Source of the DNA: Clostridia bacterium | GTDB taxonomy: Bacteria; Bacillota; Clostridia; DSM-8532 | Assembly: GCA_020047785.1 (NCBI GenBank) | Contig: JAIFNI010000061.1 | Coordinates: 1 to 57,129 of the forward strand | DNA length: 57,129 nucleotides | Direction: 5' to 3' | Shown: in pieces, positions 30,054 to 57,129 of the stretch | Layout of the letters: every line of letters begins with the position of its first letter | How positions within the stretch are numbered: the stretch's first letter is position 1 | Notes under the pieces: generated by a model | Database searches by the model: none | Told to the model about the DNA's origin: nothing | The model's input: the letters and a program-made list of their open reading frames with translations, nothing else | Program-made: the position numbers and the translations under genes

Positions 30054-32870
30054 CTATTTGGCCTGTATGACGATGATGCCCCGCACTTCTCCAGCATAGA
30101 CCCCATCTTTTGTCCACAAACCACCCATCGTGTTCTCTTTTGTCAAAACAGTCGTATGAGTCCACAGGAAATGAGTCGGCGGCGTATTGACCGCATTGGT
30201 TCCGGTTGTGACCAGGATGGATTTCCCTGCAGCCAACCTGACATTGGCCGGAAAAACAAACTGATGGCCGCTCTGCGTGAGTTTCAGCACCCAACCTGAC
30301 AGATCCAAATCTGCCTGACCGAAATTGTTGATTTCAATACTTCCTTTGGAAACATCGCACCACCCCATGATGTCATGTGCCGGTTTCACCGGTTCCTGCA
30401 AAACGGGCGGTGCAGGCACATGGTTCCTGAACTGCAGATACAAACGATACGCCAATGCCACCGCCTGCTGCTTCGGCGCTGTCCCGCGGGGATTCACCTT
30501 GCCGGCCGATGTTGCCATCACGCCACGATCGATCAGAAAGGAAACAGCCTGGGTTGCCCAGGCGGAAACACTCGCCCGATCGGCAACGGTCAATGGCTTA
30601 CCCGCTATTTGAATATCCGGCCATGCGATTTTCAAGGTATTGGAAAGCATGACAGCCATCTGTTCCCTGGTCAACGTATCCTCCGGAGAAAAACGAACGG
30701 CCGGTGCGACAATGCCAAGCTGATACGCTTTTAAAACATGCGGATCCGACGTATCTCCATAAGGATTTGTCTTGGGAGGAACAGCAGAGACCCTTGACAA
30801 TTTCTCATACAGCCTGACGCAAAGTGCCGCGAAATCCTTTCGTTTGATGGCGTCGCGAAAACCAAACAGCAGCGGATCCGGTACCAGTTCCTCATTCAAA
30901 GCCAGGGCGATTTCCTTCACCGCCCAATTGTCTGGATTTCCTGGAACGGCATACGCATCCACCCATCCATTCGCGTTCCTGATCAGCCAGTGACGTGTTC
31001 CCTGTTTATCCAGAAGTTCCAACCCGGATACAGCATCGGCAATTTGCACCAGCTGGAAGGAAGGGGTTCCGGACAACTTGACGGATGCACCCTCGGATGA
31101 AACCCATTTCCCGGAAACGAGAGATTGATAAATCGGCGTCACCAAGTCCCCATCCTTCAAATGGACACTGTCCATGCTTGTATTCAGACTGTCTTTTTCC
31201 GGGTCCGGCTCAATACCCATCAGCTTGACAGAGCCTCCTGGTTCATCCACCGCAAGCTGCATTTGACAGGACACGCCATTCACCTTCAGCAAACTCACAA
31301 AAGTCTCGCCTTTGCTGGCTGATCCAGTATGAACAAGACCAAGCAGGGACCCTTGCAGCTTCACGGCCATTTGAAGTTTTTGAACTTCCACCAGCCCGGT
31401 TGTTTCGTTGAACACGATGGGATGTGAATACAGCGGCAGCAACGCGCCGTTGACCATTTTCCCAGAAAAAGCACGCGTCGACACCACCTGCCGGCTACTT
31501 CCTGTTGTGAACTTCAAGTTTTCCTGCACATCCGCGAAAGCCAATGATGCCTTCGGCATGGGAAAAGAACCGGATTGGCTGGCTAAAACCGGATATGGGC
31601 TCAACAGGCCACCTGCAGCCGGTACAGGCTGTACCTGGAGAGGTGCAGTCTTTGAAAGCTCATCTGCCAGAATGCTGACAAAATCCTCGTAGTTTTCCGC
31701 AAAATCCAGTTCGCTGTATTTCAGCGAAGAGACCCAGGAACGTTCCTTGTCAAAGAAGGGGAAATACAAGGACAGCCCGGAGGCATTTGGATACGACTCA
31801 CTGTTCAGGTTGTACGCCACCGCCTTTTTCAGGTTGTCATATACAACAGACACTTCTTCAGGGTGAACCCCTTCATCCGTAAGATTTTCCATGAAATGCC
31901 CGATATCAACCAGGTCATAATGCATGCGGGACTGAGGTCTGTACACGTAGGACTCCGATTTTGCACGGGCTCGCAGAACCGGACCCAGCGCACCATCCCG
32001 CCAATCATCGATGAGCAGGTTGCCTAATCGATCGACCGATTCAACCAGCGCAGGGATGTGCTTCAAGTCAATCACGGAAAACGTGATTCTTCCCTCATTT
32101 CCATTCAGAGTAGACTCTTCCCAATAAGCATCCAAGAAAAAATCACCGATTGTCGCCCCGTCGGCTGCCGGATTGTTGAACAATTGACGTATGGCCAATT
32201 CAAAATCCAACCCCTTGCTGGTCATCACCGATTCCGAAGAAACCAGATAATCCGCATAGGGCGCCACCACATCCGCCACCTCCAAAGAACCCATCAGGCA
32301 GGAATTCAGAACAACCGCCTTGATTTTCCTGCCATATTTCAGCCAGTGCGCTTTCAGAGCGGCCTCCAGTTCCTGCAGACTGATTCGGTCATTGTACACA
32401 GGGTCACTGGCAAGTCCGTATACAGGACCACTGCCATGACCCCATATGATAAAGGTTTCCGCATCGGCAGCCATCGTGTCCCGGGTCAGAAACTGAGTCA
32501 GATTTGCACCGCTGCCCATGTTCAGATACTCATTGTTTTCAGGCCCGGTACCATCCAACTCACCATTTGACATGATAAGATCGAAATCCTGCATGAAATG
32601 GTGATTCACTTGTGGATGAAAATATTGAGCCGTTTGCCATTGGTACGTTCCTCTTCCACGAACGTAGACATAGGCATCTTCCCCGCTGATGCCTTTTGTG
32701 CCCAGCATCATCTCCTTCAAATCCCTTGACGGCATCCCGAATTTCTGTTCCAGGTCCGCTCCGGACACATAGACATTTACGACATGCTTTTGAAGTTTTG
32801 CCTGTACGGACTGTATGCTTGTCAATAGAAAAAAGATCATCCCGATGCAAAGAATTCTCTTGTTTTTCAT
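30054..32870 (-). CDS. Secreted clostripain-family (C11) peptidase with three SLH-like repeats and C-terminal lamin-tail-like (LTD) domain
   Basis: 938-aa ORF. Signal peptide (…SIQSVQA). IIWGHGSG and VLNSCLMG candidate His/Cys dyad. SLH-like segments around aa 640-810. C-terminal GSIEINNF...LSGWVL...FVFP pattern. Confidence 0.7.
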   Translation of the reverse strand: MKNKRILCIGMIFFLLTSIQSVQAKLQKHVVNVYVSGADLEQKFGMPSRDLKEMMLGTKGISGEDAYVYVRGRGTYQWQTAQYFHPQVNHHFMQDFDLIMSNGELDGTGPENNEYLNMGSGANLTQFLTRDTMAADAETFIIWGHGSGPVYGLASDPVYNDRISLQELEAALKAHWLKYGRKIKAVVLNSCLMGSLEVADVVAPYADYLVSSESVMTSKGLDFELAIRQLFNNPAADGATIGDFFLDAYWEESTLNGNEGRITFSVIDLKHIPALVESVDRLGNLLIDDWRDGALGPVLRARAKSESYVYRPQSRMHYDLVDIGHFMENLTDEGVHPEEVSVVYDNLKKAVAYNLNSESYPNASGLSLYFPFFDKERSWVSSLKYSELDFAENYEDFVSILADELSKTAPLQVQPVPAAGGLLSPYPVLASQSGSFPMPKASLAFADVQENLKFTTGSSRQVVSTRAFSGKMVNGALLPLYSHPIVFNETTGLVEVQKLQMAVKLQGSLLGLVHTGSASKGETFVSLLKVNGVSCQMQLAVDEPGGSVKLMGIEPDPEKDSLNTSMDSVHLKDGDLVTPIYQSLVSGKWVSSEGASVKLSGTPSFQLVQIADAVSGLELLDKQGTRHWLIRNANGWVDAYAVPGNPDNWAVKEIALALNEELVPDPLLFGFRDAIKRKDFAALCVRLYEKLSRVSAVPPKTNPYGDTSDPHVLKAYQLGIVAPAVRFSPEDTLTREQMAVMLSNTLKIAWPDIQIAGKPLTVADRASVSAWATQAVSFLIDRGVMATSAGKVNPRGTAPKQQAVALAYRLYLQFRNHVPAPPVLQEPVKPAHDIMGWCDVSKGSIEINNFGQADLDLSGWVLKLTQSGHQFVFPANVRLAAGKSILVTTGTNAVNTPPTHFLWTHTTVLTKENTMGGLWTKDGVYAGEVRGIIVIQAK

Positions 32871-32903
32871 GGCATTCCATACTCCCTTTCCACGCTTTCG
32901 GTT

Positions 32904-32944
32904 GATTCATTCTGTGCAGATTCATTCTGTGCAAATTCATTTCG
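32904..32944. repeat. 2.7 tandem copies of a 15-nt unit GATTCATTCTGTGCA
   Basis: Units at 32904-32918, 32919-32933, and partial 32934-32944. In the divergent intergenic region between the C11 peptidase gene and ccdA. Confidence 0.7.
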
Positions 32945-33158
32945 ATTGGTCAATCTCTGGGGATTCCTGAGATTTTTCTTTCCACAGTCTGTACGGATGG
33001 ATTTGCATGGCGTTTCGGATGTGGAATCGAATCATATTGAAGTTTTCCCATGTGCCAATCCACTGAATCATCCGTCTTTCAAGTGCATAATCATGCTATG
33101 GACAGTGTTCAGTTGCGATTCTGCAACAAGCAACCTGGCCTCTCAAGGGGGCATTTGT

Positions 33159-33941
33159 ATGGCAGACATCAGTATTGTATTCGCAGTGAGCGTCTTTGTC
33201 GCAGGGGTTCTTTCTTTTTTCGCTCCCTGCATCATCCCCTTGCTTCCCGTCTATGTGGCCCACTTGTCGGCCAGTGCGGGAGAAGAGGGTACCATCAGAA
33301 AAACATCGAAGCCGGAAAGCGGCAATCCGGCATGCACCGAGGGATCATGTTCCATTGACGCCAAGCCAAAATACACGGTGAATTGGCGTTTGGTCCTGCA
33401 AACACTCGTTTTTGTCAGTGGACTCGGCACTGTATTTGTCATCATGGGTTTTGGTGCAGGTGCACTTGGCGGACTGCTCTCCGGTCGCATTTTTGTGATT
33501 GTTGGCGGCATTCTCGTCATCTTGCTGGGACTTCACCAAACAGGCTTGTTTCATCTGATGTTCCTTGAACGGGAAAGAAGAGTCATGTTGAAAGACAGCG
33601 CACCGAAAGGGGGAATCCTGGGGTCCTATCTGTTGGGATTGACCTTCAGCTTTGGCTGGACGCCCTGTGTGGGACCGGTGCTCGCAACAGTTCTGGTGTT
33701 GGCCTCAAACGGGAATCAGATGCTATATGGTGCAGGACTCATGCTTATCTATACAATCGGCCTCGCCATTCCGTTCCTGCTCATTTCCTTCTTCACGGAC
33801 TATCTGGTGAAATCATTCCGTAAACTCAGTCGGCATTTACCAAAGATCCGCATCGTCGGAGGCATTCTGATCATGATCATGGGTGTATTGCTGATGACCA
33901 GCAACCTGCATCTGTTGAGCAACTGGCTCATCCAAAGATGA
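33159..33941 (+). CDS. ccdA: Cytochrome c biogenesis / thiol-disulfide electron transfer membrane protein CcdA (DsbD core)
   Basis: ORF 32946..33941. ATG 33159 has AGGGGG upstream. FFAPCIIPLLPVY and WTPCVGP motifs, multiple TM segments. Confidence 0.85.
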   Translation: MADISIVFAVSVFVAGVLSFFAPCIIPLLPVYVAHLSASAGEEGTIRKTSKPESGNPACTEGSCSIDAKPKYTVNWRLVLQTLVFVSGLGTVFVIMGFGAGALGGLLSGRIFVIVGGILVILLGLHQTGLFHLMFLERERRVMLKDSAPKGGILGSYLLGLTFSFGWTPCVGPVLATVLVLASNGNQMLYGAGLMLIYTIGLAIPFLLISFFTDYLVKSFRKLSRHLPKIRIVGGILIMIMGVLLMTSNLHLLSNWLIQR

Positions 33942-36932: not shown

Positions 36933-37148
36933 TGATTCTCCTCTTTCAGAATTCTAGTTTATGCCATCATCTCATTGATGCATCAACACGTCAATTCTAC
37001 TAGAATCCATAAGAATCCTGCATCATATCCCGATAAAACGAGTTTTGGCAAGAACAGCATTCACGGTTTCTCTGCTGCTTTGGAAAATCCAAACAAAAAG
37101 GAGCAGCTCAATCATCTGAAGCGCTCCCTTTTGGATGAGACTCTGTCG

Positions 37149-44357: not shown

Positions 44358-45134
44358 ATGTCGAACCAAATCCTTTCCATGCAGAATATCGTCAAAACCT
44401 ACCAAATGGGGTTGGAAGAGCAAACTGTCCTGAAAGGCGTCAACTTCTCCCTGAACGAAGGGGAGTTCGTGTCCATCCTTGGACCTTCCGGTTCCGGAAA
44501 ATCCACCCTGATGAACATCATCGGCTGTCTGGATGTCCCCACCAGCGGTGCGTATACGCTCAACGGGCATTCAGTGGAGGAACTCGACGAGTGCGACCTT
44601 GCGCAGGCGAGAAACAGTGAAATCGGGTTTGTGTTTCAACAATTCCAGCTCCTGCCCCGGCTGTCCGCTTTGCAGAATGTCGAGCTTCCCCTGATTTATT
44701 CCGGAATTCCAGGCAAGGAACGCAGAAAAATGGCAGCCGACATGCTGGTGAAGGTGGGGTTGGGTGACAAACTGAAAAACCGTCCCAATCAATTGTCCGG
44801 CGGGCAGCAGCAGCGGGTGGCGATCGCAAGGGCACTGGTCACCCACCCCACCATCCTGTTGGCTGACGAACCAACCGGCGCGTTGGATCAAAAGACGGGA
44901 AACCAAATCATGGACCTGTTTCAAGCGCTGAACAAAGAGGGCAGGACCATCGTCATGATCACCCATGATGAAAAAATCGCCGCACATGGCAGCCGCGTCG
45001 TGAAAATTTTGGATGGCGAATTGTTCGAAGAACGCAATCGAATGAAACTCCTCCCAATCATGTCGGAAAGTGCCGAAGACTTACTGAACATCCCGAACAA
45101 TCCACCTACGACAGACCAGATGCAGGAGGACTGA
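44358..45134 (+). CDS. ABC transporter ATP-binding protein (MacB/LolD-type)
   Basis: GPSGSGKST Walker A, LSGGQQQR signature, LLADEPT Walker B. Confidence 0.9.
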   Translation: MSNQILSMQNIVKTYQMGLEEQTVLKGVNFSLNEGEFVSILGPSGSGKSTLMNIIGCLDVPTSGAYTLNGHSVEELDECDLAQARNSEIGFVFQQFQLLPRLSALQNVELPLIYSGIPGKERRKMAADMLVKVGLGDKLKNRPNQLSGGQQQRVAIARALVTHPTILLADEPTGALDQKTGNQIMDLFQALNKEGRTIVMITHDEKIAAHGSRVVKILDGELFEERNRMKLLPIMSESAEDLLNIPNNPPTTDQMQED

Positions 45135-45137
45135 AAC

Positions 45138-46310
45138 GTGCTGAAAGAAAGCATTCTCATGTCATGGCAAAACATCATCCACAACAAGATGCGTTCCTTT
45201 CTGACGGTGTTGGGCGTACTTATCGGCGTTGCCTCCATCATTGCCCTGATTTCCATTGTGCAGGGCGTTACGGACAACATCACCTCCCAGGTCATGGACA
45301 TGGGCGCGAACAAAGTCACCGTTCAGGCAATGGGGACCCCCTTGAAAAGAGGGCTCTCAGTCAATGACATGGATACCATCTCTTCCATCGACAACATCAA
45401 GGGCGTGTCTCCAGGCGTCAGCGGCCGAACAAGTCTCTCTCATGAAGGTCATGTCATGGAAGAGGTGGATGTGCAGGGCAGAAATGAAGTGCACTTTGCA
45501 AACACGGAGGACTTGCTCCAAAGCGGCAGAGCCATCAACCGGCTGGATGTGGACAACAGGAACCAGGTCTGTCTGATTGGCCACGATGTCGTATCCGAAC
45601 TCTTTCCGACAGAGAACCCGATTGACAGGGAAATCATCGTGAACGGCAGCACGTTTCTTGTCATCGGCACCTTGCAGGAATCAAGCGGATTTTCGGCAGG
45701 CGGGAATGATCAGGCGGTGATCATCCCCTATACGACGGCAAAAAGCCTGCTCGGGATCGGATATGTCACATCCCTCGACGTTTACCTGATGGATGAGACA
45801 TTGTCCGACACCACGACCGCTGAAATCGAATCGGCCCTGCAAGTCGCCTTCAACGACAATGAGGATGGTTACAAGGTTTCCAACATGCAGGGCATTCTCG
45901 ATACGGTCGCCGACATGACCGGAACGCTGACACTGATGCTGGCGGGCATCGCCTGCATCTCCCTGATTGTCGGCGGCATAGGGATCATGAACATGATGCT
46001 GGTGACCGTGACAGAACGCACAGCCGAAATCGGTCTCCGGAAAGCGCTTGGCGCGGAACCCAAAACCATCCAATGGCAATTTGTCCTTGAAGCCCTGTTC
46101 CTTTCCTTGTTCGGCGGCGTACTCGGACTAGTCGCCGGGGTTGCGGTTGCTTATGTCGGCAGCATGCTCATGGGCGTGAGTTTCATCGTTCCTGCCTATT
46201 CCATCGGGCTGGCAGTCGGTTTTTCCGCCATCATCGGGATTGTCTTCGGATACTCTCCCGCCCGAAAAGCAAGCAGGCTGAATCCCATTGATGCCTTGCG
46301 GAGTGCCTGA
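45138..46310 (+). CDS. ABC transporter permease (MacB_PCD + FtsX domain)
   Basis: 390-aa ORF, GTG start 8 nt after AGGAGG. N-terminal TM, periplasmic domain, C-terminal FtsX-like three-TM bundle. Confidence 0.9.
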   Translation: MLKESILMSWQNIIHNKMRSFLTVLGVLIGVASIIALISIVQGVTDNITSQVMDMGANKVTVQAMGTPLKRGLSVNDMDTISSIDNIKGVSPGVSGRTSLSHEGHVMEEVDVQGRNEVHFANTEDLLQSGRAINRLDVDNRNQVCLIGHDVVSELFPTENPIDREIIVNGSTFLVIGTLQESSGFSAGGNDQAVIIPYTTAKSLLGIGYVTSLDVYLMDETLSDTTTAEIESALQVAFNDNEDGYKVSNMQGILDTVADMTGTLTLMLAGIACISLIVGGIGIMNMMLVTVTERTAEIGLRKALGAEPKTIQWQFVLEALFLSLFGGVLGLVAGVAVAYVGSMLMGVSFIVPAYSIGLAVGFSAIIGIVFGYSPARKASRLNPIDALRSA

Positions 46311-46525
46311 ATTTTTCGTGATATGATTGTACAAACGGTATTCCGAGGTTGCGCGCCTGGATTGCGATAGCCCCTTTGCCTGAGAGCCTGACCTAATTGA
46401 CTGCTTGCAGAAATATGTATGTTTCCAGGCTCCAAATGACTTCGACTAAAAACATCAAAAGACTTCGATTAAAAGCTCCAGAACACTCCGATTACTCTTG
46501 ATGTCAATCAGGATAATATGATAAC

Positions 46526-46730
46526 ATGATTCTCGTACACAAAGTCGATTTTCGACTTTTTCATGCAAGTTGCAGAATGCAACTTGCATGCTTGTGGCGA
46601 CATTGTCGCCACAAGGCACGGAATCACATGATTCGGTGTGTGAATGACACATATTGTGCCATTCACATGCAGGATTCCAGAGGAATCCTGCATAACAACT
46701 CGCAAAAGCGAGTTGTTACACCAGAATCAT
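46526..46730. other. Multi-hairpin structured element, copy A (seven abutting stem-loops inside an 8-bp closing helix)
   Basis: Closing helix 46526-46533 / 46723-46730. H1 46541-46559, H2 46562-46590, H3 46591-46615, H4 46617-46638, H5 46640-46666, H6 46667-46693, H7 46694-46717. All read directly. Confidence 0.85.
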
Positions 46731-46741
46731 AACATGGTTAC

Positions 46742-46774
46742 ACCTCGAAAAGTCGCATTGCGACTCTTCGAGGT
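46742..46774. other. Additional 15-bp stem-loop (one A/C mismatch) between element A and the ATPase start
   Basis: acctcgaaaagtcgc (46742-46756) / gcgactcttcgaggt (46760-46774), loop att. Confidence 0.7.
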
Positions 46775-46809
46775 CCAATCATAGCATCAAGTCCTCGAGG
46801 TGCATGCTT

Positions 46810-48105
46810 ATGAAAACAAGTTACATGCAACGGATCGTTGATAGTGAATTGTCTGACCGCCTGGACGCAATGGGTGCGGTGTTGATTACTGGTCCCAAGT
46901 GGTGCGGGAAAACGACAACAGCAATCCAAAAAGCAAAAAGTGTTTTAAAAATGCAGGATCCCGACAAAACAGCAGCCTATTTGGCCACCGCTCAAACAAA
47001 ACCGTCATTGCTGTTAATCGGAGATAATCCAAGGCTGATTGACGAATGGCAAATGGCACCGGTTTTGTGGGATGCGGTCAGAACAGCAGTCGACGAACGC
47101 AATGAAGAAGGCCTTTTCATTTTGACAGGCTCAACAACGATTGATTACTCGCAAATCATGCATTCCGGTACAGGCAGGATATCCAGACTCGTCATGCGCC
47201 CGATGAGCTTATATGAATCAAAAGAATCAAGTGGAAGCATATCATTAAAGAGTTTGTTTGATGACAGAGACCTGGAAATAGATGGGATTCAATCTCCGTT
47301 GTCCATTGAAAAACTAATCTTTGCTGCATGCAGAGGTGGATGGCCATCCAGTTTATCAAAGAAAAATGATAAGGCGAGTTTGTTTGTTGCAAGTTCCTAT
47401 ATCGATGACATATGTGAAAATGACGTTTCAACAGTTGATGGGACAAAAAAAGAGCCACAAAGAGTGCGCGCATTGCTTCGGTCCTATGCCAGAAATATTG
47501 CGACTTCGGCAGCAAACACAACGGTTCTCAAGGATATGAACGCGAATTTTGATAATATGGTTGAATCAACAATGTACGCCTATTTGGATGCATTGAACAG
47601 AATATTCGTCATTGATGATATTCCTGCCTGGAGTCCTTCCATCCGGTCTAAAACATCCATAAGAGGAAAAAACAAAAAACTGTTTATTGATCCGTCCATC
47701 GCGGTTGCTGCATTAAGGTTGTCTCCGGAATTATTGATGCAAGACATGAACACTTTTGGATTCCTGTTTGAAAATTTATGTGTCAGAGACTTAAAAGTGT
47801 ATTCAAGCAAACTTGGAGGGCAAATCTCCTATTATCATGATCGTTTTGGACTGGAAGCGGATGCTGTATTGCATCTTGATGACGGCAGATATGCGCTGAT
47901 AGAATTCAAGCTTGGAAGTAGAGATATTGAAGACGCGTCAAAACACCTCCTGCAGCTAAAAGAACTGGTAATAAAATATAACCAGAACACGCAAACATCA
48001 AAAATAAGAGAACCTGATTTACTGGTAGTCATCACTGGTGGGGAACTTGCTTATTCAAGAAAAGATGGTGTGAAAATCATCCCTGTCGGCTGTTTGAAAG
48101 ACTAA
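46810..48105 (+). CDS. AAA ATPase with DUF4143 / PD-(D/E)xK-like C-terminal domain (COG1373-type)
   Basis: ORF 46804..48105. ATG 46810 lies 7 nt after GAGGTG. Walker A GPKWCGKTT, Walker B-like FILTGS, C-terminal EADAVL...ALIEFKLG nuclease-like motif. Visibly AT-richer than its neighbours (not computed). Confidence 0.8.
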   Translation: MKTSYMQRIVDSELSDRLDAMGAVLITGPKWCGKTTTAIQKAKSVLKMQDPDKTAAYLATAQTKPSLLLIGDNPRLIDEWQMAPVLWDAVRTAVDERNEEGLFILTGSTTIDYSQIMHSGTGRISRLVMRPMSLYESKESSGSISLKSLFDDRDLEIDGIQSPLSIEKLIFAACRGGWPSSLSKKNDKASLFVASSYIDDICENDVSTVDGTKKEPQRVRALLRSYARNIATSAANTTVLKDMNANFDNMVESTMYAYLDALNRIFVIDDIPAWSPSIRSKTSIRGKNKKLFIDPSIAVAALRLSPELLMQDMNTFGFLFENLCVRDLKVYSSKLGGQISYYHDRFGLEADAVLHLDDGRYALIEFKLGSRDIEDASKHLLQLKELVIKYNQNTQTSKIREPDLLVVITGGELAYSRKDGVKIIPVGCLKD

Positions 48106-48167
48106 CACAGCAAACTGGCCGGCAAAAAGCATGCTGTATTTCTTGACATGTTATTTTTCCCTCATGA

Positions 48168-48380
48168 AAGCTTGATTCTCGTGCAAAAAGTCGTTTTTCG
48201 ACTTTTTCATGCAAGTTGCGATTCGCAACTTGCATGCCTACAGCGGCGATGCCGCTGTAGGGCACGGAATCACGTGATTCGGTGTGTAAATGACACCATC
48301 GGTGTCATTTACATGCAGGATTCCTTTGGAATCCTGCATAACAACTCGCAAATGCGAGTTGTTACACCAGAATCAAGCTT
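48168..48380. other. Multi-hairpin structured element, copy B (same seven stem-loops inside a 12-bp closing helix)
   Basis: Closing helix 48168-48179 / 48369-48380. H1 48185-48207, H2 48208-48236, H3 48237-48261, H4 48263-48284, H5 48286-48312, H6 48313-48339, H7 48340-48363. Confidence 0.85.
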
Positions 48381-48415
48381 GTTTTACTTACAGAATAGCG
48401 CAGGGAGGTGGAAGT

Positions 48416-49087
48416 GTGTTCCATATTCTAGTCTGCGAAGATGAGCGTAACATCCGGAATCTGATGAGCGAGTACCTGAGGGCCGACCATTACAAGGTGT
48501 ATGAAAGCGATAACGGAGAGGCGGCTCTCTCCATTCTGGAAAGCACGCACATCGACTTGCTGATTACAGACATCATGATGCCCGTCATGGACGGGTACGC
48601 GTTGTCGAAGGAATTGCGCGAATCCGGACAGACCCTGCCCATCCTCATGATTACGGCGAAGGAAACGCTGGATGACAAGAAAAAAGGTTTTCATAACGGC
48701 ACCGATGATTACATGGTCAAGCCCATCGACATGGAGGAAATGCTGCTTCGCGTCTCCGCGCTGCTTCGCCGGTCGAAAATCGCCAGCGAGAAGAAGCTGA
48801 TCCTCGGAGACACGGTGTTCGATTATGAAAAATTCTCAGTTACGGTTCAACAAAAGGAAATCGACCTCCCCAAGAAAGAGTTTCAATTAATCTTCATGCT
48901 CCTGTCGGGTGCAGGCAGAATCTTCACCCGACAGCAGATCATGGACGAACTCTGGGGTTATGATTCGGAAAGCGACGGGCAGACGGTGAATGTGCATATC
49001 AGCAGACTGCGGGAACGATTCGGCGGCAACAGGGACTTTGAAATCGTCACGGTCAAAGGACTGGGATACAAGGCGGTCAAACTATGA
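48416..49087 (+). CDS. OmpR-family response regulator
   Basis: GTG start at 48416, 7 nt after GGAGG. ILVCEDE...ITDIMMPVMDG receiver and winged-helix VHISRLRERFG. Confidence 0.85.
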   Translation: MFHILVCEDERNIRNLMSEYLRADHYKVYESDNGEAALSILESTHIDLLITDIMMPVMDGYALSKELRESGQTLPILMITAKETLDDKKKGFHNGTDDYMVKPIDMEEMLLRVSALLRRSKIASEKKLILGDTVFDYEKFSVTVQQKEIDLPKKEFQLIFMLLSGAGRIFTRQQIMDELWGYDSESDGQTVNVHISRLRERFGGNRDFEIVTVKGLGYKAVKL

Positions 49088-56297: not shown

Positions 56298-57129
56298 TTA
56301 CAGAAGGAACGCTGCATAGAGCGGAATGCTCAGGATTGATTCCGACCAGCCGAAATTCCGGCCGGACAACCGTACGGAATAAGGTGGACGATACTTTCCG
56401 ACATAGACCCCCAGGGATTTTGATTTCGTGTTTTCAGCTGCCTTGACTTCAATAGGAATGGCTGCCCCTTCCTTCGCAACAACAAAATCGATTTCCGCCT
56501 TGCCATCGGATTCCCAGTAGAACAGCTCATAACCCTTTCGCTGCAATGCGCAGGCCACATAATTCTCGATCAGACTGCCGCGGAATCCGCTCGCGTGATG
56601 AGGCGATGGATTCAGGGACTCCGGCGTTGCCTTGGTCCGGGCGGCCAGAAGACCCACATCCGACAGATAAACCTTGAACGAGGAAATATCCATCTGAGAT
56701 GCCGGGGGAAAGAAACCATGCTCAATTTTCCTGCACATCAGGATGGTTCCGCTCGCTTTCAGACAGTCCATCGATGCACCGAAATAGCTGGAGGACGCAC
56801 CTTTTTTGTTTTGCCTTGACGACTGCAGGCATTCCGCCCAAAAGCAAATAATTCCTCAATTCGCCCATCAACGAGTCGTGAAGAAAGGATGGCAACTCGA
56901 CATGGGTCTTCCAGGCTTCCCGGATCCGCCCAACCTCTGTCTCTTTTCCACTTGCCATCAGGCATTCCTCAAAATCCATCGGGTATAATTGAAGAACCTC
57001 AACTTTTCCGACCGGAAAAGAAAACTTCTGTCGATTGACAGCGAAACCCAGCAGACTGCCTGCAGCCATCACATCCAGTTCCGGACAATCTTCGGCAAAG
57101 TATTTCAATGCCGTCAGCGCACGTTCACA
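56298..57129 (-). pseudogene. DUF4143/AAA ATPase gene, 5' end outside the window, frameshifted in a homopolymer run
   Basis: ORFs 56722..57108 (frame stays open to the window edge) and 56298..56771 join into one frame if one base is removed from the T6 run at 56802-56807. C-terminal tail ...SKSLGVYVGKYRPP...SIPLYAAFLL. Confidence 0.7.

Follow-up and report, generated by a model that had tools for sequence, protein, structure and literature searches.

What are seven near-perfect, abutting stem-loops doing in a non-coding gap of a Clostridia bacterium genome: do they form a structured RNA, or something else? The question arises at positions 46526-46730 of a 57,129-nt stretch of DNA (the window), where the original prediction described seven hairpins enclosed by a long-range helix and could place the element in no class it knew. 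Two copies, A and B, are present, and each arose by its own insertion of a 203-bp non-autonomous DNA transposon (MITE), a reading to which we give a probability of about 85%. The MITE class was absent from the list considered earlier, as was any cut-and-duplicate transposon; REP/BIME had been rejected there.

Two filled sites and their empty counterparts

Sequence reading and a repeat finder run over 46200-47100 locate all seven predicted stem-loops in copy A: H1 with 8 bp, H2 with 13 perfect bp, H3 with 11-12 perfect bp, H4 with a G/G mismatch, H5 with one A/C mismatch, H6 with 12 perfect bp and H7 with 10-11 perfect bp, separated by linkers of 0-2 nt. Self-BLAST of the window bears out the second copy as well, which lies 1.4 kb downstream (48173-48375), shares the orientation of copy A and is 85% identical to it. 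The 225-nt stretch spanning copy A folds as RNA at -114.7 kcal/mol versus -53.3 +/- 4.0 kcal/mol in 200 dinucleotide shuffles (z = -15.4, 0/200), the corresponding z being -16.3 with DNA parameters and -16.4 for copy B. The element has a GC content of 44-46%, compared with 53.6% for the window and 41-42% for host spacers.

46527-46729, + strand: copy A, intact 203-bp MITE (TGATTCT...AGAATCA) of the A-type subfamily (sequence, fold, absence in L001)
48173-48375, + strand: copy B, intact 203-bp MITE of the B-type subfamily (self-BLAST, fold, absence in L001)
46541-46559: H1 of copy A, in unit L
46562-46590: H2 of copy A, in unit L
46591-46615: H3 of copy A, in unit L
46640-46666: H5 of copy A, in unit R
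46667-46693: H6 of copy A, in unit R
46694-46717: H7 of copy A, in unit R
46522-46526, no strand: left target-site duplication of copy A, TAACA (one TAACA in L001, two in the filled site)
46730-46734, no strand: right target-site duplication of copy A, TAACA (comparison with L001)
48169-48172, no strand: left target-site duplication of copy B, AGCT (comparison with L001)
48376-48379, no strand: right target-site duplication of copy B, AGCT (comparison with L001)

Between the copies lies an ATPase open reading frame (46804-48105, 433 aa, AAA_14 + DUF4143) that matches the PADLOC defence candidate PDC-S01 (E = 8e-61). An exact lookup of this protein in public assemblies returned a single contig, L001 (JGI metagenome 3300020048), which is 97.4% identical to the window over 45099-46528, 99.9% over 46726-48174 and 98.5% over 48375-48568. 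L001 is without exactly 46527-46734 and 48173-48379, keeping a single TAACA and a single AGCT. Site A reads ..ATATGA[TAACA]TGGTTAC.. when empty and ..TAACA/TGATTCT...AGAATCA/TAACA.. when filled; site B reads ..ATGAA[AGCT]TGTTTTAC.. in L001 and ..AGCT/TGATTCT...AGAATCA/AGCT.. in the window.

Perfect direct repeats border all seven fully flanked copies of the family (TAACA, AGCT, AGCA, TGGT, AGGG, TACA and TGAT), differing in sequence from locus to locus and measuring 4 bp except for the 5 bp of copy A. Because the duplications of copies A and B differ (TAACA versus AGCT), the two are independent insertions. A model with a 6-7 bp duplication around a shorter element (GATTCT...AGAATC) was discarded, the copies in L032 and L005 fitting the 4-bp model alone. 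The presence of two copies around one gene within 1.6 kb is unexpected under random insertion.

Empty sites, terminal inverted repeats and 4-5 bp duplications in the fully flanked copies together make the element a MITE. It displays the sequence features by which such elements are defined (PMC10969869, PMC3184786): it is small (203 bp) and has no transposase gene, its copies are dispersed over ~10 loci plus remnants and alternate between filled and empty states, both window sites being empty in L001, and it possesses terminal inverted repeats as well as flanking duplications. The earlier view that the element fits no known class thus stands for Rfam, REP/BIME and attC, but not as a general verdict. 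Scanned against Rfam at gathering thresholds, the whole window gives no match, and a permissive scan (E <= 1) of 46300-48450 gives two at E 0.5-0.7, far under the gathering scores. An integron attC array is excluded by inspection, which shows perfect stems that lack both conserved extrahelical bases and a GTTRRRY core; no integrase occurs in the scanned neighbourhood of copies A and B. A 68-codon open frame within the element is rejected as coding, being broken in the L023 copy and carrying non-synonymous changes throughout. The protein search with this frame returned one match, P0001, which derives from the same insertion as L023; this 59-aa public 'protein' (L032 4254-4433) is a gene-caller artefact, the open frame of a MITE copy.

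Inverted repeats and a two-unit architecture

The terminal inverted repeats extend over ~20 nt, the 5' end TGATTCTCGTGCAAAAAGTCG matching the reverse complement of the 3' end TGATTCTGGTGTAACAACTCG at 17 of 21 positions. They are conserved in all copies, with a 5'-TG start, a CA-3' finish and the core TGATTC(T)SGTGY. As the similarity reaches ~20 nt, the outer arms of H1 and H7 belong to these repeats. The closing helix predicted at 46526-46533/46723-46730 is indeed complementary, but its outermost A 46526 and T 46730 belong to the TAACA target and lie outside the element. The pairing itself holds; the enclosing role does not, since the two strands are the terminal inverted repeats and their union is the less stable of two alternative pairings. 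Similarly, H4 is a genuine palindrome but not a single hairpin: it is formed where two inner inverted repeats, which differ in type, abut.

In the minimum free energy structure with DNA parameters, the two arms of H4 pair outwards, the left one with the 5' end and the right one with the 3' end. This arrangement suggests that closing helix and H4 are better read as four inverted-repeat copies delimiting two ~100-nt units with a 2-nt spacer, a closure whose support from covariation comes from a single covarying pair, or one event.

46527-46626, + strand: unit L of copy A, C-type repeats TGATTCTCGTrC / GCACGGAATCA around H1, H2 and H3
46629-46729, + strand: unit R of copy A, G-type repeats TGATTCGGTGT / ACACCAGAATCA around H5, H6 and H7
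46616-46639, + strand: H4 region, two abutted inner repeats (..GGAATCA ca TGATTCGG..) with a 2-nt spacer at 46627-46628 (sequence reading)
46735-46781, + strand: imperfect palindrome of 47 nt, IR-like at its ends (TGGTT...AATCA) and H1-like in its core (repeat finder, 83% complementary)

Across the family alignment, unit L occupies columns 1-100, bounded by TGATTC(T)CGTGC / GCACGGAATCA, and unit R columns 103-203, bounded by TGATTCGGTGT / ACACC(A)GAATCA, giving H4 the general form ..GCACGGAATCA cg TGATTCGGTGT.. The G/G mismatch of H4 exists because a C-type and a G-type inner repeat abut there, and the two-unit pairing removes both this mismatch and the C/C mismatch of the outer helix. The two-unit fold is more stable than the fold with outer helix and H4 by ~5 kcal/mol (RNA) and ~11 kcal/mol (DNA) in the five full copies whose energies can be evaluated reliably; the energies of copy A are distorted by forced mismatch pairs and unreliable, though they point in the same direction. 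The right closing helix, 11 bp long and 100% paired, carries a G-C to C-G double change in the diverged copy L028b, where the H4 mismatch becomes C/C and the alternative, two-unit pairing stays perfect. This change had the appearance of an 'H4 flip', a reading abandoned in favour of covariation within the right-unit closing helix.

The left half of the element resembles the reverse complement of the right half, scoring 22 compared with -13.5 +/- 4.8 for shuffles, with likeness between H1 and H7, H2 and H6, and H3 and H5. From this mirrored order, the two units appear to share ancestry. A fuzzy search for solo ~100-nt units or extra inverted repeats found none. Copy A is inserted exactly at the left edge of the 46735-46781 palindrome (TGGTTACACCTCGAAAAGTCGCA t TGCGACTCTTCGAGGTCCAATCA, flanked by TAACA and TAGCA), which is present in L001 too. 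The palindrome is possibly an older one-hairpin mini-element, its likeness to the family suggesting kinship, and copy A possibly a case of insertion beside an inverted repeat.

Family members elsewhere and the evolution of the hairpins

The conserved 3' end served as the query for scans of a genome collection and of metagenomes, followed by local BLAST, nhmmer and one protein-database search. The genome-collection scan gave two matches, one partial copy and one remnant, and the metagenome scan 28, among which real copies occupy seven loci; the remaining metagenome matches are chance, coding sequence reading D-S-G-V-T-T. Altogether ~10 distinct insertions come from JFJP01, JGI metagenome contigs and one Oscillospiraceae MAG, several contigs breaking inside copies. 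All elements begin with TGATTCT and finish with AGAATCA. The resulting family sample comprises six full and four partial copies in two subfamilies.

L004, L017, L028a and L023: intact 203-bp copies (L032 holds the same insertion as L023)
L007, L019 (both contig ends) and L002 (uncultured Oscillospiraceae MAG): copies cut by contig ends
L028b: 5'-truncated, diverged copy
L003: remnant
L005 1508-1555: 48-nt mini-element with two right-end inverted repeats, one perfect hairpin and a 4-bp duplication, TGAT
140-167 of the window, + strand: decayed H6-H7 remnant of the family (nhmmer match 87-168, E = 5e-5)
37002-37044 of the window, + strand: decayed H6-H7 remnant of the family (nhmmer E = 6e-4 to 2e-3)

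Copy A is 93-94% identical to L004, L023 and L007, and copy B is 96% identical to L017 and L028a, whose flanks differ. As A and B are each closer to these outside copies than to one another, two subfamilies have each hit the window locus once. The L005 mini-MITE shows that the family occurs in a one-hairpin form too. Local alignment of the two window remnants, both intergenic, scores 34 for each, versus 15.9 +/- 2.2 (maximum 24) in shuffles for the first and 14.9 +/- 2.1 for the second; with two decayed H6-H7 fragments in the window, the MITE family has evidently long been resident in this lineage. Viral contigs yield no match to the H6 motif, the H4 motif or a degenerate inverted repeat. Plasmid and phage collections yield no blastn match to the whole element, and their matches to the terminal 43 nt at E <= 10 are noise alone, none falling under an annotated mobile element.

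Every copy lies between genes or at the last codons of one, both orientations with respect to the neighbouring genes occur, and the element is not specific to the ATPase gene that copies A and B flank. At L004 5006-5008 and L007 172-174, the terminal TGA of the element is the stop codon of the adjoining gene. In L004 the native stop stands directly 3' of the duplicated target, leaving the protein unchanged; the same would apply in L007 if L019a is the other flank of that insertion. Recognising the MITE therefore improves annotation, since the element can supply its terminal TGA in place of a host gene's own stop codon, and its open frame is translated by gene callers.

Pair statistics were drawn from a gap-free alignment of 10 copies. 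Standard (Watson-Crick/GU) pairs fill 98.4-98.6% of pair cells, compared with 28-38% when partners are slid by 1-3 columns, and 15-17 pairs are changed on both sides versus 0-2 in the slid controls, many of the 'compensatory' cells descending from few events in this small sample of two subfamilies. Among eight closely related copies, 16% of stem columns and 57% of unpaired columns are variable. In the same eight copies, all nine stem changes common to at least two copies are Watson-Crick double changes, eight of ten one-sided mismatches are private to one copy, and G.T and A.C mismatches are equally common. The palindromes are thus maintained over time, lineage-level changes always being paired, and from the equal mismatch frequencies neither strand looks like a favoured RNA. 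Double-changed pairs concentrate in H3 and H5 (9/23 versus 1/65 elsewhere, p = 1.2e-5), and from this clustering H3 and H5 appear constrained only to stay hairpins and the rest to keep their sequence.

Two loops differ between sister copies by inversion. The H1 loop reads ATTTT in copy A and AAAAT in its relatives, and the H6 loop reads TTT in copy B versus AAA in the 96%-identical L017 and L028a; compared with its sisters, each loop shows zero mismatches to the reverse complement and three in direct alignment. The H5 hairpin of L002 has, by inspection, apparently lost one base from both arms in a matched deletion. Template switching in replication generates loop inversions, multi-base compensatory changes in single events and perfect stems (PMC8794818). 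Judged from these sequence comparisons, the H1 and H6 flips are the footprint of template switching on DNA hairpins. As loop flips and paired changes both match that footprint, the hairpins form on DNA in vivo, and part of the covariation need not mean selection on RNA, since template switching also makes it. The sister copies offer a clean natural record of template-switch mutation on DNA hairpins, one that bears on the reading of covariation as proof of RNA structure.

Rival readings, mobilisation and genomic setting

A structured non-coding RNA (an sRNA, or else a leader or trailer that regulates the ATPase or the two-component operon in cis) would account for the very stable fold of both copies, the strong covariation and the intergenic position co-oriented with the flanking genes in the window, and there is a parallel in bcr1 and other MITE-like repeats of Firmicutes, which are transcribed and have compensatory changes (PMC3184786). 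We nevertheless consider it very unlikely: near-identical L001 has the same genes and neither copy, copies adjoin unrelated genes in either orientation, the stems display neither G-U tolerance nor strand asymmetry, and the element matches no Rfam family and contains no promoter-like or terminator-like consensus sites. A candidate new structured RNA is thereby removed and a documented MITE explanation takes its place. L001, with the same gene between the same neighbours, also largely refutes by its empty sites the idea that the direct copies are att-like ends or composite-transposon arms of an ATPase mobile or defence cassette, the least probable reading of all; it would explain why A and B, as direct copies, enclose a single gene and why that gene matches a phage-defence candidate family (PDC-S01), yet each copy has its own duplication, the two belong to different subfamilies (85% identical mutually versus 93-96% to copies elsewhere), and other copies are not beside DUF4143 genes. 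Slightly less remote is a relic of a hairpin-dependent single-strand transposon mobilised by an HUH/Y1 enzyme, of REP/BIME/REPIN type with a RAYT or of IS200/IS605-type PATE kind. Such elements lack the target duplications and terminal inverted repeats present here, no GTAG-type head is seen, and none of ~18 ORFs scanned at 36-57 kb of the window encodes a Y1 transposase or a RAYT-like protein, although an element built of palindromes, with loop flips that show hairpins on single strands, is what this origin would produce. REP/BIME/REPIN was additionally discarded on its hairpins, which all differ in sequence in this element, and on the target duplications; the IS200/IS605-derived PATE was discarded on the inverted repeats and duplications.

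Within the MITE reading, the upkeep of the hairpins can be explained in two ways. Template switching would convert one hairpin arm to the other and leave the arms matched, while only source copies with intact hairpins would keep transposing, folding or cruciform extrusion plausibly gathering the inverted repeats. This combination of conversion and transposition need is our preferred explanation, held tentatively with one chance in three. Its close rival, possible but in itself unlikely, regards the palindromes as a functionless, neutral by-product of template switching, without which transposition would proceed equally. Template switching alone could keep palindromes perfect: the loop flips in H1 of copy A and H6 of copy B place the process in these very hairpins, perfect stems and multi-base compensatory changes are its documented products (PMC8794818), the equality of G.T and A.C mismatches favours no RNA strand, and the L005 mini-element is a perfect palindrome of two right ends. 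However, variation is 3.5 times rarer in stems than in loops (16% versus 57%), and pure conversion predicts that a pair changes about as fast as a neutral site; five hairpins are almost invariant while H3 and H5 drift, which implies some selection, and private mismatches remain uncorrected in several copies.

In a bolder reading, the palindrome comb would be a working part of transposition, with hairpins that are extruded or folded on single strands gathering the four inverted repeats and the central IR-IR junction acting as a portable, pre-formed reactive junction. A 203-bp duplex would be too stiff to loop, and six unit-internal hairpins would draw the inverted repeats together. We regard this reading as doubtful. 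We know of no description of structure-dependent mobilisation of very short DNA for DDE transposons.

An autonomous IS with matching inverted repeats was found neither in the window nor in 263 kb of loci, viral contigs, plasmids and phages. IS3/IS21-type DDE elements typically have TG...CA ends and duplications of 3-5 bp. Insertion of the MITE is of the cut-and-duplicate kind, the target being cleaved with a stagger of 4-5 bp. Its TG...CA termini, 4-5 bp duplication and internal IR-IR junction would fit an IS3/IS21/IS30-type origin, and the transposase family can be guessed from the end sequence and the length of the duplication: the MITE would be moved in trans by a DDE transposase of retroviral-integrase type through a copy-out-paste-in route (IS3/IS21/IS30-like).

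Copy-out-paste-in IS, namely IS30 and IS911, are documented to form IR-IR junctions and to insert beside inverted repeats (PMC9333248). The two abutted inverted repeats with their 2-nt spacer resemble the minicircle or IS-dimer junction of IS30, IS911/IS3 and IS21, and the position of copy A directly beside the IR-like end at 46735 resembles IR-targeted insertion of IS (PMC9333248). In contrast to IS IR-IR junctions, which are unstable and occur in full-length intermediates, the junction here is built permanently into the element and is retained by every copy, and the duplications are 4 bp versus 2 bp for IS30. Because the central junction and the abutment at 46735 resemble IR-joining and IR-targeting, the dimer may have arisen by insertion of one unit beside the inverted repeat of another; mirror duplication would be a second route to the two-unit form.

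Chunjie of Geobacter uraniireducens, QMITE2 of Coxiella burnetii and Nezha of cyanobacteria are like this element in being non-coding, 130-235 bp long, AT-richer than the genome and intergenic, with terminal inverted repeats, direct repeats, filled and empty sites between close relatives, and predicted folds of about -100 to -130 kcal/mol, a range that also contains the fold of this element (PMC3184786, PMC10969869). Their inverted-repeat sequences are unrelated to those found here, and duplications of 9 bp (Chunjie) and 7-9 bp (QMITE2) compare with 4-5 bp. One long foldback would account for the stability of MITEs of the Chunjie/QMITE2/Nezha type, whereas this element owes its own to six or seven palindromes that are short, separate and perfect and lie in two IR-closed units. 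The bcr1 repeat of the Bacillus cereus group is likewise an interspersed Firmicute repeat (~155 bp); it has direct repeats of 5 bp, its genomic distribution is not conserved, and compensatory changes maintain its cruciform-like structure of independent stem-loops (PMC3184786). Compared by description, bcr1 has two stem-loops and is transcribed, and the present element has six or seven plus four inverted repeats. REP/BIME and pneumococcal BOX are also modular intergenic palindrome arrays of serial stem-loops; REP/BIME repeats the same ~35-nt palindrome, has no terminal inverted repeats or target duplications and is tied to RAYT, whereas here each hairpin differs in sequence and the element has both inverted repeats and duplications. 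In rRNA and microRNA genes, Monttinen and Loytynoja described in 2022 perfect stems, inverted loops and compensatory changes of several bases, and transposon sister copies now supply unusually clean before-and-after pairs (PMC8794818). Size, inverted repeats, direct repeats and fold energy are accordingly ordinary for MITEs, with bcr1 as a precedent for compensatory upkeep; what is unusual is how many separate perfect palindromes it contains, its design of two units with an IR-IR junction between them, and how clean the loop flips are. The element is an undescribed MITE from uncultured Oscillospiraceae-like anaerobes. To our knowledge, the small mobile elements of these organisms are hardly catalogued.

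The locus is bordered by an MFP/ABC/FtsX-MacB exporter upstream and by a response regulator and a histidine kinase downstream. The response regulator starts at a GTG (48416) 41 nt downstream of copy B, and the copy probably occupies the leader or promoter region of that operon. A weak terminator-like hairpin with a T-run (48120-48145) directly follows the ATPase stop, just upstream of copy B. In the spacer upstream of copy A, three direct repeats with a 23-nt period and the core GACTTCGAyTAAAA (46429-46494), also present in L001, may be a protein-binding array. A comparable setting is found at L032 4037-5254, where the copy adjoins fragments of a response regulator (43 aa) and of a group II intron maturase (GIIM), next to another MFP/ABC/FtsX exporter, a gene-debris neighbourhood that resembles the locus type of the window. 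A second DUF4143 fragment occurs at the right window edge (56298-56771, - strand). Unrelated to the MITE, a tandem duplication of ATTCATTCTGTGCA (two copies, 32900-32940) separates the divergent genes 30054-32870 (- strand) and 32946-33941 (+ strand).
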